This document shows, piece after piece, positions 23,484 to 61,267 of a DNA stretch of 64,000 nt (position 1 is the stretch's first letter; every line of letters begins with the position of its first letter). The notes under the pieces are model-generated. The model worked only from the letters and a program-made list of their open reading frames with translations. It was not told where the DNA came from and ran no database searches. The position numbers were made by a program, and so were the translations under genes. The stretch lies in contig CAVUKC010000002.1 of NCBI GenBank assembly GCA_963741965.1, positions 1,378,004-1,442,003 on the forward strand, written 5' to 3'. This DNA comes from an uncultured Chloroflexia bacterium. Its GTDB lineage: Bacteria > Chloroflexota > Chloroflexia > Thermomicrobiales > UBA6265.

Positions 23484-24647
23484 ATGCCGAGCACAACGAA
23501 CACGGTGCCACCAGGTGGCTCAGCTGGCCGATCGGCACGCGCGACCGGCCGCGAGGCAAGCGGTAACGACCCCATCACCGTCGGCCTCGTGCCGAGTCCC
23601 GGGCTTGCGGAAGACATCGCCAACGACATCAGCCAAAACCTCGCCGATGACCTCAGCCAGCAGATTGACGTCAGCGCCCCCTGGGACGTCCATGTGAGAA
23701 CGAATCCGCTCTCCGGCACGGATACCGACTCGCCCGATCTCTTCGAGGCGCTGGGCAGCGTGGACGACGCGAACGCGTGGGACTATGCGATTGCGATCAC
23801 CGACATCCCGTTCAGGCGGGACGGCCAGATCGTGATCGCCTCCAGCAGTAACGAGCGGTGCGCGGCCTGGATCTCGATTCCGGCGCTCGGACCGTTCGCG
23901 CTCCGCCGACGCACGCGCGAGCTGGTCATCCAGCTGGTACATGATCTCTGCGCTCCACAAGAGAACGACGACTCCGGGCGGGCGATAGATCCAGGGGTCG
24001 CCAGGCGCGCGGCCACCACCAGCGAGGGCAATCGCTATGTCGCGCCGGGTATCCTCGGACAGGCTCGGCTGGTGGGCGGAATGGTGTATGCCAACAAGCC
24101 CTGGAACACGTTCCCGAGTTTCAAGAAAACCGGCGTGACCGCGGTCGCCACCGGGTCATACGGCCTCATCTTCACGTCGCTGTGGGAGCTGGGAGCGGCC
24201 TACACCGTATGGAGGCTCACCGGCCTGATGCTGCTGGCGATGACCATCCTCGCGACCTGGATCATCACGACGCACCGACTATGGCAACACCCCGCGCCAG
24301 CAATGTCGGGATACCTGACGACGCTGTACAACGTGACCACGATCGTGACGATCGCATCGGGCGTGATCTTCGCCTACGTGCTGATTTACATCATGCTGCT
24401 GATCGAATCGGCGGTGTTCATGCCGCCGTCGCTGCTCGAGTCGAAGATCCAGCAGCCGGTCGGGCCGCTCAATTACGCCGCCGCCGCATGGGTGACGGCG
24501 TCGGTCGCGACCCTGGCGGGCGCGCTCGGAGCCAGCCTGGAAGACACCGCGGCGGTGCGCCGGGCGACCTTTGGCTGGCGCCAGCGCCAGCGGCTGGAAT
24601 CCTACGAGCGAGCGGTGAGCGATGATAAGGGGCAGCGTCAATCGTAG
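23484..24647 (+). CDS. Hypothetical membrane protein (soluble acidic N-domain plus about 4 C-terminal TM helices)
   Basis: Long ORF with high GC3 and clear TM segments in the C-terminal half. I recognise no family, and start placement is uncertain. Confidence 0.62.
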   Translation: MPSTTNTVPPGGSAGRSARATGREASGNDPITVGLVPSPGLAEDIANDISQNLADDLSQQIDVSAPWDVHVRTNPLSGTDTDSPDLFEALGSVDDANAWDYAIAITDIPFRRDGQIVIASSSNERCAAWISIPALGPFALRRRTRELVIQLVHDLCAPQENDDSGRAIDPGVARRAATTSEGNRYVAPGILGQARLVGGMVYANKPWNTFPSFKKTGVTAVATGSYGLIFTSLWELGAAYTVWRLTGLMLLAMTILATWIITTHRLWQHPAPAMSGYLTTLYNVTTIVTIASGVIFAYVLIYIMLLIESAVFMPPSLLESKIQQPVGPLNYAAAAWVTASVATLAGALGASLEDTAAVRRATFGWRQRQRLESYERAVSDDKGQRQS

Positions 24648-24751: not shown

Positions 24752-26416
24752 TCAGTAGATGCCGCCGATGCGCATCCAGCGAAACCCGTAGCCGCTGATG
24801 CGCATGCGCCCCTTCTTCTCGACCAGCGGGTCATACGCGCGGTCCGTGAGCAGGTCCGTCGTTCTGGCCCACTCCTCCTCCGGGATGTCGAGCGCGATCG
24901 AGCGCGGCTCGGGCGAGAGATTATTGACCACCACCACGGAGCTGTCGTCATCTTCGAACCGGATTGCGAAGATTGCGTCATCGCCGGTCTTCACAAGCGA
25001 CCACGGGCCGGTTCCGATTTCGCCACATTCCTTCCGCACCCGGATCAGCGACGCAAGCCAGTTAAGTAGTGAGCCCTGATCGCCTCGCTGGTGGCTCACG
25101 CTGGTTTGCTGGTAGCCATACTCGCCCTCGGTGAGGATCGGACGCTCCAGCTGGTCGAGCGGCGCGTCGGAGAAACCGCCCTCGCCATACGAGGTCCACT
25201 GCATCGGCGACCGGACCGCCATCCGTCCGTCGAGCTCCAGCTGCTCGCCCATGCCGATCTCCTCGCCGTAGAACAGCATCGGCGCGCCGGGCAGGCTGAA
25301 CAGCACGCTGTACGCAAGCCGCAGGTGCGCGACGTCGCCGTCGAGCATCGGCGCGAGGCGGCGACGAAGCCCGCGATTGAAGACCTGGTACTTCGGGTCG
25401 GAACCGAATGCCTCAAAGATCGTCTGACGCTGTTCCTTCGTGATCCGGGCAAGGTTGAGCTCGTCGTGGTGGCGCAGGAAGTTGACCCACTGCCCCTTGC
25501 CGGGGATGGTCGGGATTTGCGCCAGGCCGAAGTTAATGGGATCCGCACTGTTCTCGGCCAACCCGAGGAAGGTGAAGCGGTTCATCGGGAAGTTGAACAG
25601 CGCCTGCAGCTCATTGCCACCCCCGAAGTAGTCGGAGATGGTGCTCAGCCCCTCATCCACCTCACCGAGCAGGATCGCGTTGCCCTTGCGGATGGTCGCG
25701 AAGTCCTGCAGCTCTTCGAGGAACACATGCGCCATGTCCATGTCCAGCACGCCATGGTCGATGCCCTGAAGATTGATCAGGAACGGCGCCGCGTCGATCC
25801 GGAACCCGCTCACACCAAGCTCAAGCCAGAAGCCCATGATCTTCTTGAACTCATCACGCACGGCGGGATTCGCAAAGTTGAGGTCCGGCTGGTGCCAGTA
25901 GAAATTGTGGAGGTACCACGCGCCCACGGCATCGTCGTAGGTCCAGATGCCCTTCTGCTCGCCGGGGAAGACGACCTTGTCGCTGGTGTCACCGGGATCG
26001 TCCTCGCGCCAAACGTAGTAGTCGCGATACTTCGAGTCCGGGTCGGCCCGGGCGGCCTGAAACCACGGATGATCGATGGAGGTGTGGTTGGGCACGAGGT
26101 CGATGATCACCCGGATGCCGCGCTCCCCCGCCTCAACCATGAACTGGGTGAAGTCCGAGACCGATCCGAAGCGAGGGTCAACCGCGTCGTACTGCATCAC
26201 GTCGTAGCCGTCATCGCGGTTCGGGGTCGGGTAGAACGGCATCAGCCAGATGCAGGTGACGCCAAGACCGGCGAGGTAGTCCAGACGCTGCGTAAGTCCA
26301 GCGAAGTCGCCGATCCCGTCACCATCCGAGTCGGCGAAGGTCTCGACATCGAGGCAGTAGATGATGGCGTTCTTGTACCACTGGTCACGCAGCCCAAGCT
26401 GCGGATGTTTTCCCAT
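24752..26416 (-). CDS. GH13 alpha-amylase-family enzyme, trehalose-synthase-like
   Basis: Contains WYKNAIIYCLDVETFADSDGDGIGDFAGLTQRLDYL, DLVPNHTS, GFRIDAA and the conserved GH13 regions. The RBS is TGGAGA. Confidence 0.86.
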   Translation of the reverse strand: MGKHPQLGLRDQWYKNAIIYCLDVETFADSDGDGIGDFAGLTQRLDYLAGLGVTCIWLMPFYPTPNRDDGYDVMQYDAVDPRFGSVSDFTQFMVEAGERGIRVIIDLVPNHTSIDHPWFQAARADPDSKYRDYYVWREDDPGDTSDKVVFPGEQKGIWTYDDAVGAWYLHNFYWHQPDLNFANPAVRDEFKKIMGFWLELGVSGFRIDAAPFLINLQGIDHGVLDMDMAHVFLEELQDFATIRKGNAILLGEVDEGLSTISDYFGGGNELQALFNFPMNRFTFLGLAENSADPINFGLAQIPTIPGKGQWVNFLRHHDELNLARITKEQRQTIFEAFGSDPKYQVFNRGLRRRLAPMLDGDVAHLRLAYSVLFSLPGAPMLFYGEEIGMGEQLELDGRMAVRSPMQWTSYGEGGFSDAPLDQLERPILTEGEYGYQQTSVSHQRGDQGSLLNWLASLIRVRKECGEIGTGPWSLVKTGDDAIFAIRFEDDDSSVVVVNNLSPEPRSIALDIPEEEWARTTDLLTDRAYDPLVEKKGRMRISGYGFRWMRIGGIY

Positions 26417-26500: not shown

Positions 26501-29500
26501 TCAACCGGCCTGATCGAGGAGGATATCGCTGCCGGAGACCTCATAGATCGTGACACCGTCGACGTCGTAGACCTTCTCGAGCTGGCCCTCCCGTGCCGCC
26601 GCATCGAACTTCGCCAGCGAGGTCGATGGGTAGAGCGCGCGCTCGAGCGGCCCGACGTAGATCAGACGCACGTTGTAGCGGGAGAGCAGCGGTCGGATGT
26701 GGTCGAAGCCGCGCGGGCTGCCATAGATCTCCGAGACATCCCCGACGCGCTCGTTGACCTCGTTCCAGTATCCCGGCCGCTGCTGGATCTCGTGCCAGGT
26801 CCAGCCGAGCACTGTTGGCAGGCCGGTCAGGCTGCTGATCCGTCCACCCCAGCGATACGCGGGCAGCTGCGCCTCGAGCACCACCGGCGAGCCCTGCACG
26901 TTCGCCCGCAGCCACTCGACCGCGGACAGGTCGGGAGCCAGCGGGAACGTGTGGGCGATCCCCGACTGGTCGACCTCGGTCCAGGAACCGACCTGCATGT
27001 AGGCGTACCCGTCCAGCGACGGCTCCAGAGGAGCGAAGCGATCACGCAGGCGCGGTCCGGTGGCGAGCGCTGGGTAGCTCAGCCCACCGATCACGAGTAT
27101 CGCCATTGCCGCGAGCCAGAGCCGCCCCGCCGCCAGCCCTGCGAGCGGTCTCCAGGGTGGGTGGGGCAAGCTCCAGCGGGCGCCGCCGGCAAGCCGCCGC
27201 ATGTCACCGATTGCGAGCGCCATCGCGACCGCGGCGCTCACACCGAGGAGCTGCCACGCATACAGATAGAGCTTGAAGACGAGGTTCATGCGCCCGACAT
27301 CGTTGCCCAGCCGCACGAGCTCGGCGACCAGCCCGACCCCAAGTGCCAGCCCGATCATGCCGAGCGTCGTGAGATGTGCAGGGTCCCGATACCGGGCGAC
27401 CGCGCAGATCGCCACCACGGCAAGGCCCCCCAACAGGAAGAGCGATGTCACGCCGGTGCTCGTGGCGATGACGAACATCGCCAGTAACGCGAATACGACC
27501 GCCCATGCGATCGTGCGGCCACGGCGCCATGCGGCGACCATGCCGAGCGCGCGCGCCAGCTCAGCCACGAGCCACGCCACCACCGCGAGGAGCATCACGC
27601 CGTTGATCGTCAGGTAGTCGCCCAGCGCGGTGGTCTCGATGCCTGGCAGCACCTGCGCCGAAATCGATCCATAGTGGCGGAGGAATGGCAGGAACAGAAG
27701 TCGCCCGCTGGCAATGACCACGAGCAGCACCAGCGCCGCATCCCGGAAGGCAACCCACGGCGCCGATAGCCCGCGCGCGGCGAGCGCCCGCGCGGTGACG
27801 GCGATGCCGAGCAGCGCGAGCACGGGCGGATAGTCCCAGGTGTTGGTTGCGAGCAGCACGCCGGGGAGGAACCCGGCGAGTATCGCCACAGGCAGCGCGC
27901 GCTTCCAGCCGCCGAAGGTATCCAGCAGGCGCGGCCCCGGCAAGCCCTCTGCGCAGCCAGTGGCGATGCCGATCGCTACCACCGTCGCGGCGGACGTAAC
28001 CGGCATGGCCAGCATGTGCGCGTGGACATCCCCGAACAGGAACGTGAAGTACGGAAACTCGTTGATCGTCGACGGGATCACCCTGCTCGGTGCCCAGTAC
28101 GCGTCGACCGGCAGGTCGCGCTGCTCCAGAAGCGCATCCCGGATGCCCCAGATCACCGTGCCGACGTCGCCGAGCGGCGCGAGCCACGCCGGCATCGCGG
28201 TATAGCCCCACTCGCCCCTGCCGAGACGCCGAACGAAGTCCAGGTTGCCGAGCGCGAGCACCAGCACCGGAGCAGGCAACGCCAGCAGGATCGGCCGCCA
28301 CCCCGCGACACTGCTCCCCATCCGGCGAGCGTGCGAGATCAGCGCCGCCGCGGCGCTCCAGACCGCGACGGCGAGCATCGCGGCGATGGACGGGATGATG
28401 AGATTGAACGCCGTCTCCGGCACGATGCCCGTGGCGCGGCTGACCGCCGCCCACGGCACGTAGCCGAAGTAGTAGTAGTGGAGCGTGCCGCCGGCGAACC
28501 ACGGGTCGTACGGCGGGAACCACGGGCTGCGGAGGATCGCGTTGAACATCGCGAGCTCCATGGGCTTCTCGCCGCCCCTGGCCGGGTGCCAGAGATCGGG
28601 GTTTTGCATGCGGATCAGCACCATCGCGCCGAACACGATCAGGAAGATCGCTTCGGTGGCAACGACCCAACGCCAGCGGGCACGCATGTCCGCGAGGAAG
28701 GCGAGATGCCTTCGCCACAGGCACGCACCGGCCAGCACCAGCGCGAAGAGCATCGCGATCAGGACGCCGGGCACACCGAACCGGATGACGCGGGTGCTCG
28801 CCAGCAACCAGACGATCCAGCCGATGCCGTAGAGCCCGATCGCCCGCGCGATGGCATAGCCACGGTCGGGGAGGTTCGGGAACAGCCGCCACAGCAGCGG
28901 CACCGCCGGCAGCGAAACCAGCAGCAGCGCAAGGTACCAGACGAGGATCGGCATGGCGTTGGCCAGATCGGCCGGATCGAACATGTCCGACCAGGTCCCA
29001 GACGAGGCATAGACGTCACGATCGTGCTCGCTGAGCGTCATCTGCGCCTCGGTTGGGTCGATCGTCCGGCGGTTCACGCCGCCATCGCCGAGCGCGTCAT
29101 GCAGCAAATACCATGCGTCGTTGGTCGACCACCGGTCAGTCTTCTCGAAGATGCGGACGTACGGATGATCGTAAACGGAGAACGATTCCTCAGCGCCGCG
29201 GTCGTCCAGCTCGATCCCGAACAGCTCCGGCGGTGACGAGAAGCTCGCCACAAGATCGAAGCCGAGATCGCCGGCGACGAGCGCGTCGTAGTACGCAGTC
29301 GCCATTGGGTAGCGGTCCGGCAGGCGCGGGATCGTGCCGACGAGCCGATCGCTCGAGAGCACGATGTAGTCCGCGCGGTGGAGCTGGCCGATGATCCGGC
29401 TCAGCTTGGCCTCGTCGTCGCCGTCGTACCACGTCAGCTGCGCGCCCTGGTACGCGCCGACCGGGTAGCCGGGCAGCGAGAGGGGAAGCGCGTCGTCCCA

Positions 29501-30884
29501 GTGTTCGTTGGCGATCACGCTGCCGGGCGGGACATGGTCGTAGATCCACTCGGATGCCTGCACGCGCGTTTCGGGCCGCGAGTAGATGGTGGTGAACGCC
29601 AGACCGGAGAAGGCGGTACCTGCGATCGCCAGCACCGCCAGCACCACGCCGATCTTGCGCAGTATCGCCGCACGCCGTGACGCCCCGATAGCAGCGGCCC
29701 GGGCGAGGGGCAATGGCCGAGGCAGCGACCGCCCAGCGTTCACCAGCGAGTCCAGCTGCACCGCGGCGAGCACGATCAGGAACGGGTACGCGGGAAGCAG
29801 GTATCGCTGCGCCTTGACGAAGCCCGTCCCGAAGAAGACGAGGTGCCACGCCACCCAGACAACCATCGCCAGGATCCACCACGACGGCCACCGTCGAGCC
29901 AGCAGCAGGCGGATCGCCGATCGCGACGAGGCTGCCCAACGCGACCAGTCCGAGCGCCGGGCCCATGCCCCACCGCACCAGGTTGTCGAGAACGAAGAGC
30001 ATCGGCGCGCGGTCGGCCCACTGCACGCTCGGCGGCATGTCGATGTACCCGGCCTGCACGTCGCGCCAGTAGCGGAGCGTATCGGTCCAGATCGGCTCCA
30101 GCCGGACGTCCCAGATGTTCGGGCCGACGAACGAGTACGGCTGGGCCACGCGGAACGCGAGCGCGCTCACCATGCCCGCGAGAAGGACGGCGGGAACGAT
30201 CGGCACGCCGCGCCGCCGACGCCAGCGCGGGTTGAGCGCCGGCACGCCATGGAGGCGCACGGTTTCCAGCACCGGAACGGCGAGGAACCCGGCGGCAATG
30301 AGCAGGTTCGGCTTGCTGGAGACGGCCATGCCGACGCAGAGCCCCGCGAGGGCGTACCACCGCCACGAGCGCCGCGACCACGCCTGCAGGACCGCCGCGT
30401 AGGACGCGACGGCGAAGAATGCCGAGATCGCGTCGGTGGTGGTGAAGTGGGACGCCTGGATGTGGAGCGGCGTGAAGGCCAGCAAGGTCGCGGCGATCAG
30501 CCCGGCCATCGGTGTCGCGAGCCGCCGCGCGATCCAGTACACGAGCGTCACCGTGCCGAGGTCGGCTGTCGCGGAGAGCCACCGGCCCGGCAGGTGAGCA
30601 TCGCCATACGAGACATGATTGGTGAGGTTGCCGAGCAGCTTGGTCAGGAAGAGCGGCAGCGTGCCGTAGAGGTAGCCACCGTACCCGTTGTTGGCGGGGT
30701 TAAGCGGCGAGTGAGCCGTATCGAAATATGCGGCGATGCCATTGGGCCAGGAGATGCCGGTGAGCACCATCGTGATGAAGCGCTCGTCGGGATGCTGGTA
30801 GTGATTCGCGCCCCAGCCAATGCCGGCGAAGCGCACCGCGGCGGCGGCAAGGAGGATCAGAGCCAGCAGCAAGCGGTGCGACAC
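26501..30884 (-). pseudogene. Giant membrane protein, reading frame interrupted as sequenced: GT39/PMT_2-like GT-C N-terminal module fused to a YYY-domain (DUF2298, Chlor_Arch_YYY) region
   Basis: The N-part is in one frame (about 30884 to 29912; HPDERF loop motif, many TM helices). The C-part is in another frame (about 29925 to 26501; LHYYYFGY motif). The frames join cleanly (..SLVAI|RLLLARRWPSWWILAMVVW..) if the 7-nt direct duplication at 29911-29924 is removed. The upstream frame otherwise runs 240 Arg-rich codons to 29190. Confidence 0.7.
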
Positions 30885-31226
30885 GGACAAGCCGCCGATG
30901 CGGAGCGCTGAGCGATCGGCAGCCCGCCGCGCACGTGCGGCACGAACAGGCAGGACCCTGGCACCGGACCGGCGCGGAGTGCACCCATGCCTGACCGTAC
31001 GACGCACCACGCAACCGTCTCTCTACTCGCCACGCCCTCAGCGCAACCGGCCAGCGAGATATCCATCGGCAGATGCGAAGATCGTACCACCGGTTCCGAT
31101 CTCCGACGACGATCTCGCGAACGCTTGAAACTAGCACTTCTCCGCATGGGACGCCTTCAATCTCCGGAGTGACTGATATCATGCAGAAATCGACGCCTTG
31201 TCGATGGCGATATTGGGGGTGGCGCG

Positions 31227-32088
31227 ATGGAACGGTCGTCCTCTGGATACCGGTCATGGTTCCTGGTCGCTGGCTGGCTGATGCTTGTCATGATCGTGCC
31301 CCTTCCCTTGCGGGTCTCCGCGGCCCAGGTGACGGCGACCGTCGACCCGTGCATCACACCGACCGTCACGGCAACGGCGAGAGCCACGGACGCGCCCACC
31401 GGCACGGCAACGGAAGCGCCAAGCAGCACGCCCTCCGACACCCCGACCGACACGCCCACGAATACGGCGACCAACACCCCGACGGGGACTGCAACCGAGA
31501 CGCCGACTGGCACGGTGACTGGGACAGCGACCGACACGCCGACGAACACTCCCACCAGCACGGCGACCGACACCCCAACCAACACACCGACGAACACCGC
31601 GACAAGCACGGCGACCGATACGCCCACGAACACGCCGACGAACACGCCACCGATACGCCGACTAATACACCCACGAACACCGCCACGAGCACGGCCGACC
31701 AGATACGCCCACGAACACCCCGACCGATACCCCGGTGCCTCCTACGGACACACCAACCAACACGCCGACGGATACGCCGGTGCCGCCGACCGATACCGCC
31801 ACCAATACACCGACGGACGTGCCGCTCGCCTTCTCGGCACCGAATCAGGAGCGCGCATTCGCCCAGGCTGGCGAGGACATATGTGTCACGCCGACGATCG
31901 AGCCCACCCAGGCAACCACTTCGCCGACTGTCGATCCAACGCCCACGGCGCAGCCGGTAAGCGTGCTGCCTGCTACCGGCCAGGGCGCTTCCTCGAGCGA
32001 TACCGGCCCGCGCATGGCGCTCCTGCTCGCCTCCCTCGCGGTGCTGTTGCTCGCCGCGTTTGCCTCGGCCCGAAAACGCGCTCGCTAG
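31227..32088 (+). pseudogene. Thr/Pro-repeat surface protein with signal peptide and C-terminal LPATG-TM-basic sorting signal (two frame breaks as sequenced)
   Basis: Signal peptide in frame 0 (MERSSSGYRSWFLVAGWLMLVMIVPLPLRVSAAQV). The TP repeats continue in frame 2 from about 31646 and in frame 1 from about 31700. Frame 1 ends ...VLPATGQGASSSDTGPRMALLLASLAVLLLAAFASARKRAR*. Confidence 0.6.
31335..31825 (+). repeat. Imperfect short tandem coding repeats (ACNCCNACN... encoding T-P-T-N/D-T)
   Basis: Directly visible: (ACG CCG ACG AAC/GAT ACN)n degenerate periodicity. Confidence 0.8.
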
Positions 32089-32140
32089 ACTACACTGGAG
32101 CCTCTGTCAATCGGTCACCTCCAGTGATGGGAGTCAACGG

Positions 32141-33121
32141 ATGCGAATACTGGTCACCGGAGGGGCCGGGTTCATCGGCAGTCATCTCGTCGATCGCCTG
32201 CTGGAGCAGGAGCATGAGGTGACGGTCGCCGACAACTTCCTCACCGGGCACCGCGCCAATCTCGAGCACATCGCCGAGCACTCCCGGCTACAGATCGTGC
32301 AGCAGGATATCTCGATGCCGCTTCGAGGCGAGCTGGCAACCACGCGATTCGAGCGGGTGTATAACCTCGCCAGCCCCGCGAGCCCACGCGGCTACAGCAA
32401 GTATCCGCTGGAGACGATGCGGGTGAACTCGCAGGGCACATGGAACGCGCTCGATCTCGCGGCAGCACACGGCGCCCGGTTCCTGCAGGCGTCGACCTCG
32501 GAGGTCTACGGTGACCCGATGGTGCACCCGCAGGTGGAGCACTACTGGGGCAATGTCAACCCGGTCGGCCCGCGCGCCTGCTACGACGAGGGAAAGCGCT
32601 TCGCCGAGGGTCTCGTGATGGAGCACGTGCGGCAGCGTGGCATCGACGCCCGCATCGCGCGGATCTTCAACACCTATGGTCCCCGTTCCCACCCCGCAGA
32701 TGGCCGCCTCGTACCGAACTTCTGCGTCCAGGCCCTGCAGGGCGAGCCAATCACGGTGTACGGCACCGGCGAACAGACGCGATCGTTCTGCTATGTGAGC
32801 GATCTCGTTGATGGCCTGATGCAGCTTATGGAAACGGATGGAGTCGCCGGGGAGATCGTCAATCTCGGAAACCCCGAAGAGCACACGATCCTCGAGTTCG
32901 CGACCCGCATCACCACGCTCGTTGGCTCGGAGGCCGGCATCACGCATCTCCCGCTGCCGGGGGACGACCCCAAGCGCCGCCAACCCGACATCACGAAGGC
33001 GACTCGTCTGCTGGGCTGGATGCCGACGGTGCCGCTGGAAGACGGTCTCGCCGCCACACTCGACTTCTTTCGCGAGCGGATCACCCATCCCGACGTCGCC
33101 GCGGAAGCGCCTGCGCGGTAG
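32141..33121 (+). CDS. UDP-glucuronate decarboxylase (UDP-xylose synthase), SDR family
   Basis: Contains MRILVTGGAGFIGSHLVDRL, STSEVYGDP, HPQVEHYWGNVNPVGPRACYDEGKRFAE and RIFNTYGPR. GGGAG lies 7 nt before the ATG. Confidence 0.9.
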   Translation: MRILVTGGAGFIGSHLVDRLLEQEHEVTVADNFLTGHRANLEHIAEHSRLQIVQQDISMPLRGELATTRFERVYNLASPASPRGYSKYPLETMRVNSQGTWNALDLAAAHGARFLQASTSEVYGDPMVHPQVEHYWGNVNPVGPRACYDEGKRFAEGLVMEHVRQRGIDARIARIFNTYGPRSHPADGRLVPNFCVQALQGEPITVYGTGEQTRSFCYVSDLVDGLMQLMETDGVAGEIVNLGNPEEHTILEFATRITTLVGSEAGITHLPLPGDDPKRRQPDITKATRLLGWMPTVPLEDGLAATLDFFRERITHPDVAAEAPAR

Positions 33122-34147: not shown

Positions 34148-35077
34148 CTAGTCAGCGGGACGCGGGAGGGGTTGCTGCGCGACAATCGGCCGCGCCTCCC
34201 GATGCCGACCGACAAGCCAGAACACCAGCGCGCCGGCGCCGCCGAGCCCGGCCAGCACCGCGATCACGGGCCCGAGCCCGGGAATGAGCCCAACAAGCTG
34301 CAGTATCAGGACACCGACCAGAGCCGTGAGCCATCGCTGCTGTGTCGCTTCACCGCCCCTGAACGCCCGCATGATCGCCTCGCCGAGCAGCGACCCGCTC
34401 ACGAGGTAGCCGAGGAACCAGAGCGCCGGCATCACCACGAGGAAGATCGCAATGCCGAGCGGGATGCCGATGACGGTAATGAATGCCAGCACAGCGATGA
34501 TGGGCAACCCGATCCAGAGCGCGAGAGCCGTCACGATCGACATGCCAACCTGATGCCGCAGGGTTTCGCCGGCGGCGGCGAGCTGACGGCCACCGTACAC
34601 AGCGAAGACCACCGTCGCGATCAGCAGCGCCAGCGTCACGCCACCCCACATGAGCAGGGTGAAAACCGCCGCGCCCCAACCGAGACTCACATAGTTGTCC
34701 TCCTCGTCGATGTTGCCGGTAACGGTCGCACCGTCCGCGCGGTCGAGCGTGCTGCTGACCAACGTCACGTTCTTGACTGTCGCGTCCTGTGCAAGCGAGA
34801 GCGTGCCGTCGACCACGATCGCGTCACCACCAACGGTTCCTTCGATGGTGGCGTCACCGCCGATCACGATCACGGTATCCGTCACCTCGCCACGGACGAT
34901 CGCATCGCCGTTGGCAACGATGATGGTCCCAATGACTTCGTCGGGTGCGACGGTGACATCGCCGTTCGCGCGGAAGATGAACCCCTCGTCAGGGTCCGTG
35001 GGAGTCTGCGCGGAGGCGAGCGCCGGCATGAGCATGAACGAGAGAACGATTCCAACTGCAAGGATCCATCGCTTCAT
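34148..35077 (-). CDS. Secreted/membrane protein with bactofilin-like (polymer-forming) beta-helix repeats and C-terminal multi-TM region
   Basis: ATG 35077 follows AAAGGAG. Signal peptide present. Repeated G-D/T-V/I-x-V units (VIGTIIVANGDAIVRGEVTDTVIVIGGDATIEGTVGGDAIVV). Four to six TM helices. Confidence 0.72.
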   Translation of the reverse strand: MKRWILAVGIVLSFMLMPALASAQTPTDPDEGFIFRANGDVTVAPDEVIGTIIVANGDAIVRGEVTDTVIVIGGDATIEGTVGGDAIVVDGTLSLAQDATVKNVTLVSSTLDRADGATVTGNIDEEDNYVSLGWGAAVFTLLMWGGVTLALLIATVVFAVYGGRQLAAAGETLRHQVGMSIVTALALWIGLPIIAVLAFITVIGIPLGIAIFLVVMPALWFLGYLVSGSLLGEAIMRAFRGGEATQQRWLTALVGVLILQLVGLIPGLGPVIAVLAGLGGAGALVFWLVGRHREARPIVAQQPLPRPAD

Positions 35078-35402
35078 GGTGTGCTCCTTTAGGAGAGTGG
35101 AAGCGACGGGCGAAGGCGAAGCCTTGAGCCCGTCCCGCACCTGGAGCCTACCCACGCTCCCGTTACAGCCGCGACGTCAGCGGGCGCACACGCGTTGCAG
35201 GTGTGTGACAAACACCGTCAGCATGCGTACTGTCATGCGGTTGTAACGCCTGGATGCGAGAGTCGGTCGTGCCTGCCACACCTCGGGCGATACGCTGGAG
35301 TGAGGCAGGGTGGCGCCCTGAGCGAAGGCGCCACCACGAGCCAGTAGTCGGATCGTCACACCCGTTCCCGGCACAACCTGGCCCCACCGTGGAGCTTCCA
35401 TC

Positions 35403-49849: not shown

Positions 49850-52612
49850 TCAAGCCTCGCGTAGCGCGTAGAAGATACCTCCACTACTCCCCGCGAACAC
49901 CGTACCGTCGACGACGATCGGCGAGGCATAGAGAGCGGCATCCGTCGTGAACCGCCACATCTCCTCACCGCTTTGCGCATCCAGCGCGTAGATTGCTCCA
50001 TCGAGGCTGCTGATGTACACGACCCCATCCGCGACCGTCGGAGATGCGTACACAGCGTCACCGGCCGTGAACGTCCAGCGCTCCTCTCCGCTCGCAGCAT
50101 CGATTGCGTACAAAGATCCCCCGTCATTGCCTGCGAACACGGTGTCGTCTACGACCGCGACGGCGGATGCGATGAGGTCGCCCGTCTGGAATACCCACCG
50201 CTCCTCGCCGGAGGTTGCATCCAGGGCGTGCACGGCTCCGGCGCCATCGCCGATGAAGACAACGCCACCCGTGACCGAAGCCGATGCAATGAGATTATCG
50301 CCAAGGTCCACTTGCCACAGGAGCTCGCCGGTGCCCTCGTCAACGGCTGAGAAGCGGCCATCCACGGCGCCGATGTAGACCCTGCCGTCAGCGACCGCCG
50401 GAGATGCATACACCTCCGCGCCGGTCGCGAACCGCCAGCGCTCGCTGCCCGACTCGGCGTCAACGGCATAGAGGTAGCCGTCCCAGCTTCCAACGTAAAC
50501 GACATCGCCTGCAACAATGGGGGACGAGAACACCGCTGCACCAGTGGAGAACCGCCAGAGCTCAGCTCCGGTCTCGGGGTCCAGCGCAAACAGGTCGCCG
50601 GTATCACTGCCGACGTAGAGCCGGCCGCCTCCAAACGCTGGCGACGACGATGTGGTTGTGCCGATGCTGACCCGCCACCGCTCGACGCCCGAGTCCTTGT
50701 CGAGTGCAGTAACCGAGCCGTCAAGCGTGCTGAAGTACACACTTCCGTCCACCACGGCGGCGGTGGATCCGACGTCACCTGTCGAAGCTGACCACGCCGT
50801 CTCGGGCGCGGTGACTGGACCCGGGCCAGGCTGCTCGCCGGTGTGCGCTGGGTTACCTCCCAGCATTGTGGACGGTACTGCGGTAGGGGTCGGGACGACC
50901 GTTGGGGTCGGAACCAGTGTGGCGGTCGGCGGCGGAGTCAGTTCGGCCGTCGGCACGGACGTCGAGGTATTGGTCGGTTCTGGTGTTGGCGTGTTGCTGG
51001 GTACAGGAGTATTCGTCGCTGTATTCGTTGGCAAAGGTGTGTTGGTGGCGGTTGGCGTCGGTACCGGCGTCTCGGTCGGTTCCGGGGTATCTGTCGGCTC
51101 GGGGGTCGGCGTGTTCGTCGGTACAGGCGTAATCGTCGGCTCCGGGGTCGTCGTGGCGGTCGCTTCCGGCGTTGGCGTCGTGGTCGGGCTGGGCGTCGGG
51201 GTGACCGTTGGCGGCAGAGGTGTATCGGTGGGTGCCGGGGTACTGCTTGCTGTGGGCTCGGGAGTGCTCGTCAACGTCGGTGCAGGCGTCAGCGTCTCCG
51301 TTGGCTCGGGGGTGCTGGTCGCGGTGGGCTCGGGGATATCGGTGGCGGTCGGCTGGGGTGTCGGCAACGTTGTTGGGATCGGCGTTGCCATGTCCGACTC
51401 CGTCGCAGGCGAGGCGATTGGCACATTCGGTTGTACGGTCGGCGTTGCCATTACCGCCGGCGGCGAGGACTCGGTCCTCGAGGAGCCACCCAGCGCGTAG
51501 ACATAGCCATCCCGACTCCCGAAGAACACGACTCCATCAGCAACGGCGGGCGATGACGCAATATCGCCTCCGGTCTCGTACGTCCAGAGTATTTCCCCAT
51601 CGGTTGTCGAAAGCGCGTAGAGACGACCATCCCCGCTGCCGACGACGAGCATGTCGTCGGCAACACTGGGCGACGAGCCGATCGGCTCACCGGTTTCAGT
51701 GCTCCATGTCGCACTCGGGGCATATCGCTTGACGGCGGTGATCCTACCGGCCCGATCGGTCACATAGATGAAATCGCCGCTGACGGCTAGGGACGATGTG
51801 ATCTGCTCGTTCGCTGAGAATCGCGACAGGCTACTGCCCGTGCCAGCGTCCATGACGAAGATTTGCCCGCCAAAGCTCGCAATATGAACAAGGCCGCTCA
51901 CAATGGCCGGCGATCCATAGACGGGACTGCCGGCGTTGAACCGCCACAGTACCGTTCCGGACGCCACGTCTATCGCGAAGAGCGTGCCGTCCGCGTCAGC
52001 GATATACGCGACTCCGTCTGCCAGCGATGGAGACGAGTACAGCCGCCCTCCGGTCGCCAGGCGCCATCGCTGGGTTCCCGCCCCGGCGTCGAGCGCGTAG
52101 AGCGCGCCGTCACCGCCGCCGACAAGGACCGTGTCGCCCACGACAACCGGTGACGACAAGACCGCGCCGCCCGTATCGAATCGCCAGCGCTCGCTTCCAT
52201 CTCCAGCGTCGAGCGCGTAGAGGTTGCCGTCGAAGCTCCCGACGTATACGACGCCCTCGCTGACTGCAGGCGACGAAGCAACGTCTCCTTCAGTTCCGAA
52301 TGTCCAGACAACGGATCCATCTCTGGCGTCGATAGCGTACAGGCTGTCGTCGTTGCTCCCCACGAAGACAGTCCCGTCCACGACCGCCGGGGAAGATATC
52401 ACGCCACCCCCAGTCTGAACGCGCCAGCGCAACACTGGCTCGCCGACAGGGGCTGGGCCCGGCTGCTCTCCGGTTCTTGCCGGATTCCCGCGGAAGACCT
52501 GTGCGGAGGCAGCCTGCATCACACCAGCATCGAGTCGCAGCGCTCCGCCGAGATCAAGTGGCGCGAGCGCGACAAGCAGGGCGAGCAGGGCGAGCACCCG
52601 CGGATGGATCAT
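49850..52612 (-). CDS. Secreted protein with two PQQ-like 8-bladed beta-propeller modules joined by a ~200-aa Thr/Pro-rich linker
   Basis: Signal peptide from ATG 52612. The blade signature SSPAV.DG.VYVGS.DG.LYA.DA..G...W is repeated about 8 times in each half. Both halves begin GNPA(R/H)TGEQPGP. Confidence 0.85.
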   Translation of the reverse strand: MIHPRVLALLALLVALAPLDLGGALRLDAGVMQAASAQVFRGNPARTGEQPGPAPVGEPVLRWRVQTGGGVISSPAVVDGTVFVGSNDDSLYAIDARDGSVVWTFGTEGDVASSPAVSEGVVYVGSFDGNLYALDAGDGSERWRFDTGGAVLSSPVVVGDTVLVGGGDGALYALDAGAGTQRWRLATGGRLYSSPSLADGVAYIADADGTLFAIDVASGTVLWRFNAGSPVYGSPAIVSGLVHIASFGGQIFVMDAGTGSSLSRFSANEQITSSLAVSGDFIYVTDRAGRITAVKRYAPSATWSTETGEPIGSSPSVADDMLVVGSGDGRLYALSTTDGEILWTYETGGDIASSPAVADGVVFFGSRDGYVYALGGSSRTESSPPAVMATPTVQPNVPIASPATESDMATPIPTTLPTPQPTATDIPEPTATSTPEPTETLTPAPTLTSTPEPTASSTPAPTDTPLPPTVTPTPSPTTTPTPEATATTTPEPTITPVPTNTPTPEPTDTPEPTETPVPTPTATNTPLPTNTATNTPVPSNTPTPEPTNTSTSVPTAELTPPPTATLVPTPTVVPTPTAVPSTMLGGNPAHTGEQPGPGPVTAPETAWSASTGDVGSTAAVVDGSVYFSTLDGSVTALDKDSGVERWRVSIGTTTSSSPAFGGGRLYVGSDTGDLFALDPETGAELWRFSTGAAVFSSPIVAGDVVYVGSWDGYLYAVDAESGSERWRFATGAEVYASPAVADGRVYIGAVDGRFSAVDEGTGELLWQVDLGDNLIASASVTGGVVFIGDGAGAVHALDATSGEERWVFQTGDLIASAVAVVDDTVFAGNDGGSLYAIDAASGEERWTFTAGDAVYASPTVADGVVYISSLDGAIYALDAQSGEEMWRFTTDAALYASPIVVDGTVFAGSSGGIFYALREA
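50870..51481 (-). repeat. Low-complexity Thr/Pro/Glu coding repeats (linker)
   Basis: Degenerate ACN-CCN periodicity encoding TPEPT/TPTPT/TNTPV units. Confidence 0.7.
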
Positions 52613-52865
52613 GGCAGGCAACGCTCGGTGGAGATGATCACGGCGACATGGCGGCAATGGCACTGCACCGGTGACCTCCCACGCAGTTGCGATCGGGGGC
52701 TATGCACATCGATATTTATGTTAGATTGTAGGGTACATCTTCGTGCCAGTCTACAGTTGTCGGACGGCACGCGAACATGAGCGGCAAGACAGTTGCCACT
52801 GCGTTACGGGGCGCTCCCCGAACACAGCGGGCAAACGCTATGCACTCGTCATCAGGGAGGTCACC

Positions 52866-58045: not shown

Positions 58046-59323
58046 TCAGGGCTGTGAATCCCCAATCACCGATATGCCCGGCACCGTTTCGGATGGGTAA
58101 CCGCTCACCACCCACCGGTCCGGCTCGCCGCCGAGGAACAGCGCCAACTCCCCGATCGCGCTCGATACCGCCCGAAGCATGCCCTCGGTCGGCCGCACGC
58201 GTGGCTCCCAGTGGAACGCCTTGACCGTGAGAAGACGTGACTTGCGATCGAACGACGGGTCCAGCCGACCAACGAGCCGGCCCCGGTGGAGGATCGGCAG
58301 GGAGTAGTAGCCGTATACCCGCTTCGGTGCCGGGGTATAGCACTCCAACCGGTAGTAGAAACTCCACAGCTGCTCGTCACGGGAGCGATTCCAGACCAGG
58401 TTGTCGAACGGTGACAGCAACGTGGTCCGGGTCGGCCAGCCTCGCCGCGTGCGGAGCTGTTCCAGTCGCGGAATTGCATCCGCGCTCAGCCAGGCGGGCT
58501 CGTCGATACCCTCGATCCGCACCGGAACCATCGCCCCCTGCTCGACCAGCGCGGCGACCGTGCGCTTCGCCTCTGCCCGCGGCATGTGGTAGCGGCCGCC
58601 CGTGCGAAAGTAGTCCATGAACCAGCCGATCGTGGTCACTCCGAGAGCGCGCGCTGCCTTGCCGCCGAGGATGAGATCGCGTTCATCCCGGCACACCTGC
58701 CGCTCCCAGAGATCCGGTACGAGCCGCTCCGTCACGTCGAACACCCGCTGGAAGCTCTCCCGACGCCGCATCACCAGCGATCCTTCGGACCACAGATCGG
58801 AGAGCGCCTCCCGCTCGGGCTTGACGCCGTACCAGTCCCACGCCTTCGCGGTGGCTCCCTCCGGCGCCTCAAAGTGCCGCGAGGCCTTCGGACCCTCCTC
58901 GCGGATCCGGGCGAGCACCGCCTCGCGGATTGGCTGCTGGTGTTCGTACTTTGTCGCAAGCACCTGCCGGAACCGCTCCATCTCCGGGCGGTACAGATGC
59001 AGCTCGTCCATGGGGACGATGGCGGCGGCGTGCGCCCAGTACTCGGTGATGGCGTGCTCCGGCTCGTAGAGCGTCTCCCAGAGGCCGACGTCGTATGGCC
59101 CCAGCCGACTGAAGGCGACTGTCTCGTGGGAGCGCGAGATGACGCTGATCGTGTCGAGCTGGACACAGCCGAGGTCGTGCACGAGCTGCCGCAGGTCGGC
59201 GAGCCGGATGCGGCGTCGCGGCGGTGGCGCGGCCAGCCCTTGCGCGGCCACGGCAATCGCCTGCGCCTCCCGGCGCGTCAACGCCTCCTCCGGTCGATCC
59301 TGCACGCCCATCGCTACGCTCAT
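58046..59323 (-). CDS. Winged-helix DNA-binding protein, YcaQ/DUF1006-like (putative crosslink-repair DNA glycosylase family)
   Basis: Contains LGCVQLDTISVISRSHETVAFSRLG, EYWAHAAAIVP and YYSLPILHRGRLVGRLDP. ATG 59323 follows AGGGGGAA. Confidence 0.8.
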   Translation of the reverse strand: MSVAMGVQDRPEEALTRREAQAIAVAAQGLAAPPPRRRIRLADLRQLVHDLGCVQLDTISVISRSHETVAFSRLGPYDVGLWETLYEPEHAITEYWAHAAAIVPMDELHLYRPEMERFRQVLATKYEHQQPIREAVLARIREEGPKASRHFEAPEGATAKAWDWYGVKPEREALSDLWSEGSLVMRRRESFQRVFDVTERLVPDLWERQVCRDERDLILGGKAARALGVTTIGWFMDYFRTGGRYHMPRAEAKRTVAALVEQGAMVPVRIEGIDEPAWLSADAIPRLEQLRTRRGWPTRTTLLSPFDNLVWNRSRDEQLWSFYYRLECYTPAPKRVYGYYSLPILHRGRLVGRLDPSFDRKSRLLTVKAFHWEPRVRPTEGMLRAVSSAIGELALFLGGEPDRWVVSGYPSETVPGISVIGDSQP

Positions 59324-59362
59324 ACGCGGATTCCCCCTGCATTCGTATACTTGCTGCGGGTG

Positions 59363-60511
59363 ATGACACCCATCCGGCGACACTCACGGGAGCCACCATT
59401 GCGCATCGCCCTCGTCCACGACTACCTCACCCAGTATGGCGGTGCCGAGCGGGTTCTCGACGTGTTGTACGCCACATATGCGGACAGTCCGCGGCACGTT
59501 TACACCTCGTTCTACGTCCCGGAGCAACTGCCACCACCGATGCGCCTCTGGCCGGTGACCACCAGCTCCCTCTCACGCATCCCGCTCGCTGCCCGGACGC
59601 ACCGCGCCTGGCTGCCTCTCTACCCCAGGATGTTCCGGCGATTGGGGAGATCGATCGACGCCGATGTGGTGATTGCCGACACAAGCGCGTGGGCGCACCA
59701 CGCGGCACCGCCACCGGGCATACCCTTCATCGTCTACTGCCACTCCCCTGCCCGCTTCCTCTATGGAGACGAGCACTATCTCGAAGCCGCCGACATGCCC
59801 GCGCCGCTCGGCTGGCTCTCGACCCATCTCTTCGCCTGGCTGCGGCGGCAGGACGTCGCCGCAGCGCAGGTGCCCGACAGGATCATCGCGAACTCGGCGG
59901 CGGTGCAGCGACGCATCCGGGAGGTGTGGCATCGGGACGCCGAGATCGTTCACCCGCCCATCGACACCCGGCAGTTCCGGCCAACAATGGAGAAGCCCGT
60001 CCAGCCGTGGTTTCTCGTCGTATCGCGCCTGGTGCCGCACAAGTGGATCGACCGCGCGATCCTGGCGAGCAACCGAACCGGCCAGCCGTTGCGGATCATC
60101 GGAACCGGACGCGCGGAGCGTTCACTCAAGCGCATCGCCGGCCCGCAGGTCGAGTTCATGGGGCCGCTGGCAGACCAGTTCGTGGTGGATGCGATGCAGC
60201 AGTGCCAGGCGCTGCTGCTGCCAGGTGTCGAGGACTTCGGCATGACCGCCGTGGAGGTGCAGGCCGCGGGGAGACCGGTCATCGCGGCGGCCGGCGGCGG
60301 CGCGCTGGAGACCGTGGTTGACGGTGAGACCGGGATTCTCGTGCCTGTCGGGGACATCGACGCCCTCGCGGATGCGATGCAACGCGTGTCCGAGCGATCG
60401 TGGGACACGAAGGCAATCCAGCAGCACGCGGATCGCTTCGACGTCCGTCACTTTCAGGCGCGAATCCGTGGGATTATCGATGAGGTGATCGCCGAACGCG
60501 GCTGCAGGTAA
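59363..60511 (+). CDS. Glycosyltransferase, GT4 (GT-B) family
   Basis: Contains RIALVHDYLTQYGGAERV and EDFGMTAVEVQAAGRPVIA...GGALETV. Start is ATG 59363 or TTG 59399 (GGGAG RBS). The upstream 259 codons of the track ORF are antisense to the YcaQ-like gene. Confidence 0.86.
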   Translation: MTPIRRHSREPPLRIALVHDYLTQYGGAERVLDVLYATYADSPRHVYTSFYVPEQLPPPMRLWPVTTSSLSRIPLAARTHRAWLPLYPRMFRRLGRSIDADVVIADTSAWAHHAAPPPGIPFIVYCHSPARFLYGDEHYLEAADMPAPLGWLSTHLFAWLRRQDVAAAQVPDRIIANSAAVQRRIREVWHRDAEIVHPPIDTRQFRPTMEKPVQPWFLVVSRLVPHKWIDRAILASNRTGQPLRIIGTGRAERSLKRIAGPQVEFMGPLADQFVVDAMQQCQALLLPGVEDFGMTAVEVQAAGRPVIAAAGGGALETVVDGETGILVPVGDIDALADAMQRVSERSWDTKAIQQHADRFDVRHFQARIRGIIDEVIAERGCR

Positions 60512-60514
60512 GGA

Positions 60515-61267
60515 TCAGCGCCCGAACCGGAACGCCCACACCCGCAACGCCGCCTCGAGCACGACCCGTCGGGAGAGCTTGGACTTTCCGGCGACGCGGT
60601 CATGAAACAGGATCGGAACCTGAGCGACGCGCGCGCCGTGGCGCACCGCTCGGTACGTCGTCTCGATCTGGAAGCTGTAGCCGTCCGAGGTGATGCTCTC
60701 CAGATCGATCGATCGGAGCAGCTCACGCCGCCACACCTTGAAGCCGCCGGTGAGGTCGCGAATCGGCACGCCGAGCACCACGCCCGCATACCATCCTCCC
60801 GCGCGGCTGATCATCCGGCGGTGCCACGGCCAGCCCTCGGTGGCGCCACCGGCGATGTAGCGGCTGCCGAGCACGAGATCGACATCGTCAGTCATCGCCT
60901 CCACCATCGTCTTGAGGTCCTCGGGGCGATGCGAAAGATCGGCGTCCATCTGCGCGATGACCGGCACATCCGTGGCGAGCGCGCGCTCGAACCCGGCGAT
61001 GTAGGCCCGGCCGAGTCCCTGCTTGCGTGCGCGATGCAGCACATCCACACGACCGCAGGATCGTTCGGCGAGATCGTCCGCGACGGCGCCCGTGCCGTCC
61101 GGCGAGGTGTCATCGACCACGAGCACGCGAAAGCGATCGTCGAGCGCGAGCAGCTGCCGGACGATCTCGGGGAGGTTCTCTCGCTCGTTGTAGGTTGGAA
61201 TGACCACCAGGACGGGTGCGGAAGATGTGGTGTCCGATGGTGACGCAGCCGAAGGCCGCGACGTCAC
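60515..61267 (-). CDS. Polyprenol-phosphate mannose/glucose synthase (GT2, Dpm1/Ppm1-like)
   Basis: Contains VVIPTYNERENL, VVDDTSPDGT, QMDADLSH and a C-terminal basic amphipathic end. GTGA overlap with the upstream gene. Confidence 0.9.
   Translation of the reverse strand: MTSRPSAASPSDTTSSAPVLVVIPTYNERENLPEIVRQLLALDDRFRVLVVDDTSPDGTGAVADDLAERSCGRVDVLHRARKQGLGRAYIAGFERALATDVPVIAQMDADLSHRPEDLKTMVEAMTDDVDLVLGSRYIAGGATEGWPWHRRMISRAGGWYAGVVLGVPIRDLTGGFKVWRRELLRSIDLESITSDGYSFQIETTYRAVRHGARVAQVPILFHDRVAGKSKLSRRVVLEAALRVWAFRFGR

Follow-up and report, generated by a model that had tools for sequence, protein, structure and literature searches.

The YYY gene and its two modules

The subject of this study is a gene for a giant membrane protein of the YYY family (DUF2298/TIGR03662), which was analysed together with its neighbours in a 64-kb stretch of DNA (64,000 nucleotides of contig CAVUKC010000002.1; referred to below as the window) from an uncultured Chloroflexia bacterium of the Thermomicrobiales. 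A first-pass annotation of this DNA had described three adjoining genes, i.e. the YYY gene, a divergently transcribed gene for a Thr/Pro-repeat (T/P) surface protein with an LPATG sorting motif, and a gene for UDP-glucuronate decarboxylase/UDP-xylose synthase (UXS), and had read them as an enzyme, its substrate and the supply of its sugar nucleotide. All three genes are present in the window. Our analysis predicts that the YYY protein contains two modules of the glycosyltransferase (GT) class GT-C, and the comparison of related loci points to a role for it in a more general pathway of envelope-glycan assembly.

The whole YYY gene occupies positions 26501..31010 of the minus strand. As sequenced, it consists of two overlapping open reading frames (ORFs; 29190-31010 and 26501-29866), which after the repair of one frame break form a gene of 1,502 codons, combining a PMT_2-like module with a DUF2298/TIGR03662 module. 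The reconstructed protein (1,502 amino acids, aa) is encoded from 31010 to 29918 in one frame and from 29914 to 26501 in the next. The break itself (29915..29918, minus strand; net +1 nt) falls within a predicted helix of module 1, at approximately aa 365, in the sequence context ...GCGATCGGCGATCC..., which is located outside any homopolymer or repeat. When one unknown residue was placed at the junction, the reconstruction could be aligned without gaps with 17 full-length homologues; this restoration of the register by a single residue indicates a net gain of one nucleotide in ...ATCGGCGATCC....

The reconstruction exceeded the cut-offs of the Pfam models PMT (protein mannosyltransferase; E 1.8e-15, 57.6 bits vs a cut-off of 22.7, aa 98-243), PMT_2 (E 4.5e-14, 53.4 bits vs 26.1) and DUF2298 (E 7e-99, 332.4 bits vs 27.8, aa 729-1255), as well as that of the NCBIfam model TIGR03662 Chlor_Arch_YYY (516.7 bits vs 300.25, aa 686-1491). 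It should be borne in mind that PMT_2 is a broad model; two proteins encoded next to YYY genes, a 680-aa membrane protein and a GT-C protein of the Agl23 family, are also among its matches. Among the candidates scored in our search, 454 homologues were found at E <= 1e-10, and the same architecture is common to more than 100 homologues (approximately 1,400-1,600 aa) from Thermomicrobiales, Chloroflexia, Anaerolineae and Dehalococcoidia. Some YYY homologues are already labelled by NCBI as "glycosyltransferase family 39 protein". A metagenome scan with the N-terminal part of the protein detected no relatives.

The structure of module 1 (approximately aa 45-470; 29600..30878, minus strand) was predicted with AlphaFold2 (AF2) for residues 36-642, which comprise the N-terminal module and the alpha/beta domain following it. 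The resulting model (predicted local distance difference test score, pLDDT, 92.9; predicted template modelling score, pTM, 0.92) was compared with the PDB using Foldseek. The top 42 matches were all GT-C enzymes, including STT3/AglB (E 7.5e-10), ArnT (1.5e-7) and Pmt4 (3e-7), with further matches to ALG9/ALG12, PglB, EmbA/B/C and AftA. This predicted structure, in line with the PMT and PMT_2 matches, confirms the transmembrane GT-C fold that the first-pass annotation had proposed. Its more specific assignment to the GT39 (PMT-type) enzymes was not supported by structure: Pmt4 is not encountered before rank 21, Pmt1/Pmt2 occupy ranks 28-30, with STT3/AglB, ALG9/12 and ArnT ahead of them, and the modelled module is therefore structurally no closer to GT39 PMTs than to STT3 or ArnT. 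The N-terminal module scores 32.9 bits on the TIGR03663 model (cut-off 126).

The D-E pair noted previously in this module is highly conserved. It is part of the motif HPDERF (aa 73-78; 30777..30794, minus strand), located directly after the first predicted helix, and represents a candidate catalytic acidic pair. In alignments made with 17 and with 62 full-length homologues, residues H73, P74, D75 and E76 proved invariant in 18/18 homologues, and their conservation among 63 was 90% or higher. The transmembrane part is followed by an alpha/beta domain (approximately aa 480-690; 28940..29572, minus strand), recognised from the pattern of strands and helices in the AF2 model, where its pLDDT is above 90. 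This domain contains many invariant residues and is presumed to face outside the membrane.

Module 2 (aa 686-1491; 26537..28954, minus strand) was defined by the TIGR03662 and DUF2298 matches and, from AF2 and Foldseek, as a GT-C-like transmembrane domain with a C-terminal alpha/beta domain. The AF2 model of 852 residues of the YYY region (pLDDT 93.1, pTM 0.94) gave significant PDB matches only with GT-C enzymes, namely AftA (E 5e-6; target-normalised TM-score 0.53), the C-mannosyltransferase DPY19 (2e-5) and ArnT (1.4e-2). A profile search of PDB sequences yielded a weak ArnT match only (E 0.011). The possibility that the YYY domain is a transporter was considered and rejected, as the Foldseek matches to transporters had a probability below 0.35 and a TM-score of approximately 0.1.

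Invariant or near-invariant alignment columns of module 2 form several conserved loop motifs (28463..28873, minus strand): LPDRGY (28856-28873), NPDLW (28589-28603), FPPYDPW (28499-28519) and HYYYFG (28463-28480; aa 844-849), the last of which contains the YYYxG motif. The D of LPDRG is invariant and is placed between early helices of the module. The membrane side of the HPDE and LPDRG loops was inferred, not computed. Weak similarity between the two modules was detected with hhalign (E 1.3e-3), which aligned positions 321-591 of the N-terminal module (approximately aa 356-626) with positions 541-844 of the YYY module; the similarity spans the last helices of module 1 and the alpha/beta domain.

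On the basis of these models, the YYY domain is probably a divergent GT-C-like domain, i.e. it looks like a second GT-C module, a point missed by the first-pass annotation. Since GT-C folds are predicted for both modules, we read the protein as two GT-C modules in tandem, and it looks best described as a tandem GT-C enzyme, with an alpha/beta domain after each of the modules. Newly added here are (i) the prediction of a GT-C-like fold for the DUF2298/TIGR03662 family, and (ii) the identification of its "additional N-terminal region" as a predicted PMT_2-type GT-C module with an alpha/beta domain of its own. For this large family of membrane proteins, a probable GT-C identity provides a concrete biochemical hypothesis.

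A separate class of paralogues (P0076, P0082 and P0091) was also observed, in which the HPDE of module 1 is kept and the motifs of module 2 are degenerate: YYY is replaced by HFPYW, HDTYL or HDFTF, and NPDLW is lost. These sequences suggest a catalytically dead second head. The paralogues adjoining a true UXS gene in three of the related loci described below (L003, L006 and L007) resemble the P0076 class by module 1, in which HPDEL replaces HPDER.

The T/P-repeat gene, the UXS gene and the frame breaks

The YYY gene and the T/P gene diverge from an intergenic region of 216 nt (31011..31226, measured from both starts), in which no sigma-70-like consensus was found by a scan that was uninformative. 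The T/P gene (31227..32088, plus strand; stop codon 32086-32088) is broken by three single-base indels, and its coding sequence runs through three frames, i.e. the frame of 31227, then that of 31073 and finally that of 31735. The product would consist, in order, of a signal peptide, approximately 200 aa of T-P-T-N/D-T/A-type repeats, a short Cys-containing spacer, LPATG, a hydrophobic helix and the basic tail KRAR. The LPATG motif of the sortase type (31966..31980, plus strand), with the helix and tail that follow it, constitutes the sole LPXTG-type tail in the window, and among the ORFs of the 64 kb none was found to be sortase-like (TLxTC).

At the DNA level the repeats have periods of 12, 36, 48 and 84. 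Alignment of repeat copy against repeat copy revealed a cluster of indels (31640..31705, plus strand), composed of -1 at approximately 31645, +1 at approximately 31695 and +1 at approximately 31701, and Tandem Repeats Finder reported periods of 35 and 83 where 36 and 84 are expected. As a consequence, the LPATG tail is out of frame with the start codon, and no one-frame LPXTG protein is encoded as sequenced.

The UXS gene (32141..33121, plus strand) follows the T/P gene in the same orientation after a gap of 52 nt; no terminator-like site was found in this gap, the scan again being uninformative. Its product matches human UXS1 (4gll/2b69) over the full length (residues 1-315; E 3.5e-115, 388 bits), with GalE as the next family (2.4e-40), and also matches the Pfam models Epimerase and GDP_Man_Dehyd. 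Judged by these similarities it is clearly a bona fide UDP-xylose synthase, which bears out the earlier assignment of a UDP-glucuronate decarboxylase immediately after the T/P gene.

Four indels are therefore located within a segment of 1.8 kb (29915-31705), in two adjacent divergent genes, one in the YYY gene and three single-base ones in the T/P gene, in agreement with the frame breaks reported previously for both. No other break was detected in the 64 kb. The GC3 (G+C content at third codon positions) frame scan, performed for the whole window, identified the break in the YYY gene as the only same-strand frame switch without an intervening stop. The indels of the T/P gene were located by repeat alignment, because its unusual composition defeats the GC3 scan. 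Neither half of the YYY gene shows further decay.

A related strain is represented by a 5,841-bp contig of JGI sample 3300043331, which contains a treS-like gene 91% identical to that of the window. On this contig, a PMT_2+DUF2298 ORF with a minimum length of 1,346 aa runs across the break site without interruption, and 85 nt separate its end from the treS-like gene, as they do in the window. For the YYY break in the window, this leaves either a recent, strain-specific event or an error in the sequence. In the window, the corresponding gene of the alpha-amylase family (24752-26416, minus strand), located downstream of the YYY gene, scores 538.7 bits on TIGR02456 (trehalose synthase, N-terminal), i.e. 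below the cut-off of 678, and the "treS" label is thus approximate.

Read from its sequence, the locus is non-functional as sequenced, unless assembly errors are responsible. Programmed frameshifting and phase variation were set aside, since the breaks lie in neither homopolymers nor slippery tracts and the orthologous genes are unbroken. That the indels are sequencing or assembly errors, and that the organism itself has an intact, functional locus, is quite possible, although we would put it somewhat below an even chance. Three of the four indels fall in the 12/36/84-nt tandem repeat, a kind of sequence that often suffers consensus errors, the strain with the 91%-identical treS-like gene has the uninterrupted YYY ORF, and the frames flanking every break retain full-length similarity to homologues with no stops or other decay. 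However, the GC3 scan found no further unexplained same-strand frame switch in the 64 kb, which indicates that the assembly is not generally indel-prone, the YYY break lies outside homopolymers and repeats, and four indels that all fall in a pair of neighbouring and possibly related genes do not look randomly placed. In either case, with both genes frame-broken, the locus of this genome is a poor starting point for experiments.

The only candidate lipid-sugar synthase noted in the window is a DPM1-like GT2 enzyme (60518..61267, minus strand), possibly a polyprenyl-phosphate sugar synthase, which had been described earlier as Ppm1-like. The GT2 gene is indeed there and its product matches Pfam Glycos_transf_2 (7e-34); the best NCBIfam matches (AglJ, PpgS and DolP-hexose transferase) are all below their cut-offs, and the gene is situated outside the locus, 27 kb away. 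It is abutted by a GT4-like ORF (plus strand, within 59200-61267; weak matches at 59789-60388), and the two may form a small separate glycosylation gene pair.

Several other genes of the window were recorded. The ORF 49853-52699 (minus strand) encodes a 949-aa PQQ/beta-propeller protein (Beta-prop_ACSF4 2e-135, PQQ_2 7e-109) with T/P-rich linkers, which on its sequence is a second candidate target of O-glycosylation. The presence of this second T/P-rich protein indicates that T/P tracts are common in this genome. Two sizeable ORFs on either side of the locus had no Pfam or NCBIfam match: 34148-35155 (minus strand), whose product resembles a signal peptide at its N-terminus and also has several hydrophobic helices and a repetitive stretch with abundant Asp, Gly, Val and Thr, and 23484-24647 (plus strand), with a multi-helix membrane region at the C-terminus of the product.

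Gene neighbourhoods of related loci

The related loci examined comprised 80 from species-representative genomes and 3 of the closest intact orthologues (57-58% identity). Clustering of all flank ORFs (84 loci) revealed a number of recurrent partners of YYY genes: a further YYY paralogue (37/84 loci), a GT4 enzyme (26/84), a PMT_2-like membrane protein of approximately 680 aa (24/84), a TIGR03663/Agl23-family GT-C protein with NHL repeats (21/84; 270.7 bits vs a cut-off of 126), a TIGR00374 flippase-like/LPG_synthase_TM protein (19/84), short-chain dehydrogenase/reductase (SDR) epimerases/dehydratases (18/84), an S-adenosylmethionine-dependent methyltransferase (17/84), and an unassigned membrane protein of approximately 600 aa with sub-threshold similarity to Agl23 (14/84). 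A DPM1-like GT2 gene adjoins the YYY gene in 4/84 loci. The partner genes are mostly found on the strand of the YYY gene and are closely spaced. The recurrence of these partners points to a general glycan assembly pathway, and not to a dedicated enzyme-substrate pair. A conserved gene set around YYY is now defined for the Chloroflexota, whose envelope glycans are poorly known.

The partners were also observed as a same-strand set across the Chloroflexota (L011-L069 and others, e.g. L017 at 3-24 kb, L040, L047, L055 and L067), consisting of genes for the TIGR00374 flippase-like protein, the SDR enzyme, the GT4 enzyme, the methyltransferase, the 680-aa PMT_2-like protein, the YYY protein, the 600-aa membrane protein and the TIGR03663/Agl23-family GT-C protein with NHL repeats. 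From its gene content, this set looks like an undescribed envelope-glycan assembly operon.

A total of 11 T/P-rich ORFs were found, in the flanks of 10 loci (among 83). A T/P-rich ORF was regarded as close when it was <= 2.5 kb from the YYY gene, and the number of close ORFs was compared with the flank space by a binomial test. Six of the 11 were close, against 39% expected (p = 0.23), and loci with such an ORF numbered 5/83. Moreover, the three closest orthologous loci contain no T/P-rich gene within 10 kb. The recurrent co-localisation of T/P and YYY genes, named beforehand as the observation on which the proposed enzyme-substrate pairing depended, was largely not seen, and a dedicated pairing of the YYY enzyme with the neighbouring T/P gene is not supported statistically.

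Individual loci nevertheless resemble that of the window, and these weigh on the other side. In L001, the YYY gene is followed by a UXS-like gene and then by a convergent gene for a protein of TPTN repeats, whose C-terminal end is made up of LPNTG, a hydrophobic helix and RR. The YYY gene of L036 has, 98 nt upstream, a gene whose 203-aa product is a pure T/P stalk, carrying a signal peptide as well as a helix at the C-terminus. The presence of such stalk genes near YYY or UXS in the window, L001 and L036 hints at some substrate linkage.

A further case was observed in a metagenome-assembled genome of the Anaerolineae (L080, 125-3764), where two secreted glycoside hydrolases/cellulases with PT linkers are encoded directly upstream of YYY. 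These hydrolases have repeated carbohydrate-binding-like modules (the domain identities were read by eye), and the gene order resembles that of Caldicellulosiruptor bescii, with its GT39 gene beside cellulase genes.

The association with UXS is real. A gene of the UXS family adjoins the YYY gene in 7/13 Thermomicrobiales-like loci, in three different gene orders (L001, L003, L006, L007 and L081-L083). In L001 and L081-L083 it is situated directly downstream of YYY on the same strand, and its product is 47-48% identical to the UXS of the window (E 6e-82 to human UXS1), whereas in L003, L006 and L007 a UXS 69-73% identical to that of the window is encoded two genes upstream of YYY in divergent orientation. 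The linkage is absent from the other Chloroflexota loci examined, and in a negative control, composed of 80 metagenomic UXS loci (640 kb) from unrelated organisms with UXS at 50-70% identity, none (0/80) held a YYY or PMT_2 homologue. Survival of the linkage through three gene orders argues for selection rather than inertia, which suggests, from the gene orders compared, that the UXS-YYY link has been maintained within the Thermomicrobiales-like lineage. Of the proposed cluster of enzyme, substrate and sugar supply, the lineage-specific UXS linkage was sustained and the co-localisation with T/P genes was not. The link is lineage-specific yet robust, and suggests a product containing pentose.

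Proposed function, alternatives and known systems

Considering the predicted folds together with the gene neighbourhoods, we think it moderately probable that the YYY protein is a two-headed GT-C glycosyltransferase working in a general envelope-glycan assembly set, for which the adjacent T/P protein is at most one of many substrates. By analogy with characterised GT-C enzymes, a cytoplasmic GT2 enzyme would load a sugar onto polyprenyl phosphate, the lipid-linked sugar would be flipped across the membrane, and each GT-C head would pass it to an acceptor at the outer face of the membrane. The YYY protein would operate within a multi-GT-C assembly line, sometimes with a DPM1-like GT2 enzyme. 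GT-C enzymes use lipid-phosphate-linked sugars and not UDP-xylose directly, and the UXS therefore cannot feed the YYY enzyme directly; a pentose would need to be transferred to polyprenyl phosphate, or be used in a cytoplasmic step. As the glycan set is linked to UXS-family genes in the Thermomicrobiales, the product in this lineage probably includes a pentose derived from UDP-xylose.

A number of observations weigh against a role in a general assembly set. No Agl23-like (TIGR03663), flippase-like, methyltransferase or second YYY gene is present in the 64-kb window, where the exceptions among the family partners are the GT4-like and GT2 genes at 59-61 kb; the YYY gene of the window is therefore set apart from the canonical cluster and stands beside a T/P gene. 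The three "pure T/P stalk" genes (window, L001 and L036) are all less than 1 kb from YYY or its UXS neighbour. The GT-C match of module 2 is modest, with query-normalised TM-scores of 0.28-0.39 and only 3 matches below E 1e-3. In addition, no lipid-phospho-xylose donor is described in the literature searched, and the searchable literature on DUF2298/TIGR03662/PF10060 contains no functional study and no assigned function. Nor does it include a study of an archaeal YYY protein; the matches obtained with "YYY domain" were discarded, since they refer to the unrelated Y_Y_Y domain.

The locus might alternatively be a dedicated O-glycosylation module, in which the GT39-like head modifies threonines of the adjacent LPATG protein, the second head extends the glycan, the UXS supplies xylose, and enzyme and substrate have decayed jointly after the system was lost. 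This is unlikely in our opinion, even though it accounts for several features: the Pfam PMT match above the cut-off, the GT-C fold with an acidic pair right after the first helix, the divergent 216-nt gap, the 52-nt spacing of the T/P and UXS genes, which share a strand and are separated by no terminator-like site, and the fact that all four indels of the window fall in the enzyme and T/P genes. The recurrence of the YYY/UXS-like/TPTN trio in L001, the stalk gene 98 nt upstream of YYY in L036 and the PT-linker cellulases of L080 are also in its favour, as is the precedent of C. bescii, in which a GT39 enzyme is encoded beside the Pro/Thr-linker proteins it glycosylates (PMC6151902). However, T/P-rich ORFs are not commoner near YYY genes than flank space would predict (6/11 vs 39%, p = 0.23; 5/83 loci), they are missing from the three closest orthologous loci, and T/P linkers are common anyway, as exemplified by the protein encoded at 49853-52699. 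The N-terminal module is structurally no nearer to PMT than to STT3 or ArnT, the locus contains no sortase, flippase or lipid-sugar synthase, and UDP-xylose is no donor for GT-C enzymes. A broader form of the same idea, according to which DUF2298/YYY proteins are the catalytic O-glycosyltransferases for Thr-rich surface-protein "stalks" in the Chloroflexota and, by extension, in archaea with TIGR03662 and Agl23, seems to us improbable. If it were true, the priming of Thr from a lipid-phosphate sugar would fall to one GT-C head and the extension of the glycan to the other, and the paired decay of the enzyme and T/P-stalk genes would represent a natural co-loss. For archaea with TIGR03662 and Agl23, the literature searched names no O-glycosyltransferase of the S-layer glycoprotein.

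A more serious competitor is the view that the adjacency is meaningless, i.e. that the YYY protein helps to make an envelope polymer other than a protein (such as a polysaccharide of the wall, or a lipoglycan, by analogy with mycobacterial lipomannan/lipoarabinomannan, LM/LAM, or arabinogalactan), and that local synteny has kept the T/P and UXS genes as bystanders. We regard this as a realistic possibility, if one short of being the favoured explanation. The best structural match of the YYY domain, AftA, adds arabinose to a glycan acceptor during the synthesis of cell-wall arabinan (PMC11127046, PMC12041299), and the combination of a cytoplasmic GT4 enzyme, a methyltransferase, several GT-C proteins and a flippase-like protein resembles the logic of pathways of the phosphatidylinositol mannoside (PIM)/LM/LAM type; the lack of enrichment of T/P genes near YYY and of YYY genes in the 80 unrelated UXS loci (0/80) is in line with it. 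On the other hand, the persistence of the UXS linkage through three gene orders in the Thermomicrobiales points to selection more than to inertia, the family partner Agl23 acts in haloarchaeal protein glycosylation (PMC11182771), and the N-terminal module is above the cut-off on a protein-mannosyltransferase Pfam model. As regards the acceptor of the two-headed enzyme that we propose, a polysaccharide or lipoglycan is at least as likely as a Thr/Pro-rich protein, and in our judgement slightly more so, because of the AftA-like second head and the GT4 and methyltransferase genes in the conserved cluster. O-glycosylation of Thr/Pro-rich regions would be plausible as well, given the PMT profile match, the C. 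bescii precedent, the Agl23 link and the three adjacent stalk genes.

Among the known systems, GT39/PMT enzymes of bacteria glycosylate Thr/Pro-rich regions of secreted proteins (PMC6151902, PMC11727336). Like those of this group (Mycobacterium/Streptomyces Pmt, C. bescii Cbes1864), the YYY protein scores above the PMT and PMT_2 cut-offs and has a predicted GT-C fold with a D-E pair after the first predicted helix. It differs in its size (approximately 1,500 aa), in the fusion of a second GT-C-like module, and in partners such as the GT4, methyltransferase and further GT-C genes, which simple PMT systems lack. As a member of TIGR03662/DUF2298 it is typical, with a full-length match above the cut-offs, the YYYxG motif and the additional N-terminal region, although the copy in the window is frame-broken.

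In haloarchaea, Agl23 translocates lipid-linked glycans in reconstituted liposomes and has been implicated in the use of dolichyl-phosphate-linked hexose for N- and O-glycans of the Haloarcula S-layer glycoprotein (PMC11182771). The Agl22/Agl23 lipid-linked hexose pathway finds a parallel in the TIGR03663 genes located beside YYY in 21/84 Chloroflexota loci, but not in the window, which has none. Three-component systems combine a GT-C enzyme with a polyprenyl-phosphate sugar synthase and a flippase (PMC11127046). Resembling these (ArnC/ArnEF/ArnT, Gtr, GT136 pentofuranose and mycobacterial Aft/Emb systems), the related loci encode a DPM1-like GT2 enzyme, TIGR00374 and GT-C proteins. Unlike them, the YYY protein has two GT-C heads per polypeptide and its clusters contain several additional GT-C genes, while in the window the synthase gene is 27 kb off and there is no flippase-like gene. 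The position of an SDR/UXS-type decarboxylase gene next to a PMT_2-type GT-C gene recalls that of ArnA beside ArnT. Finally, by analogy, the gene sets around YYY would follow an assembly-line logic comparable to that of the mycobacterial PIM/LM/LAM and arabinan pathways.

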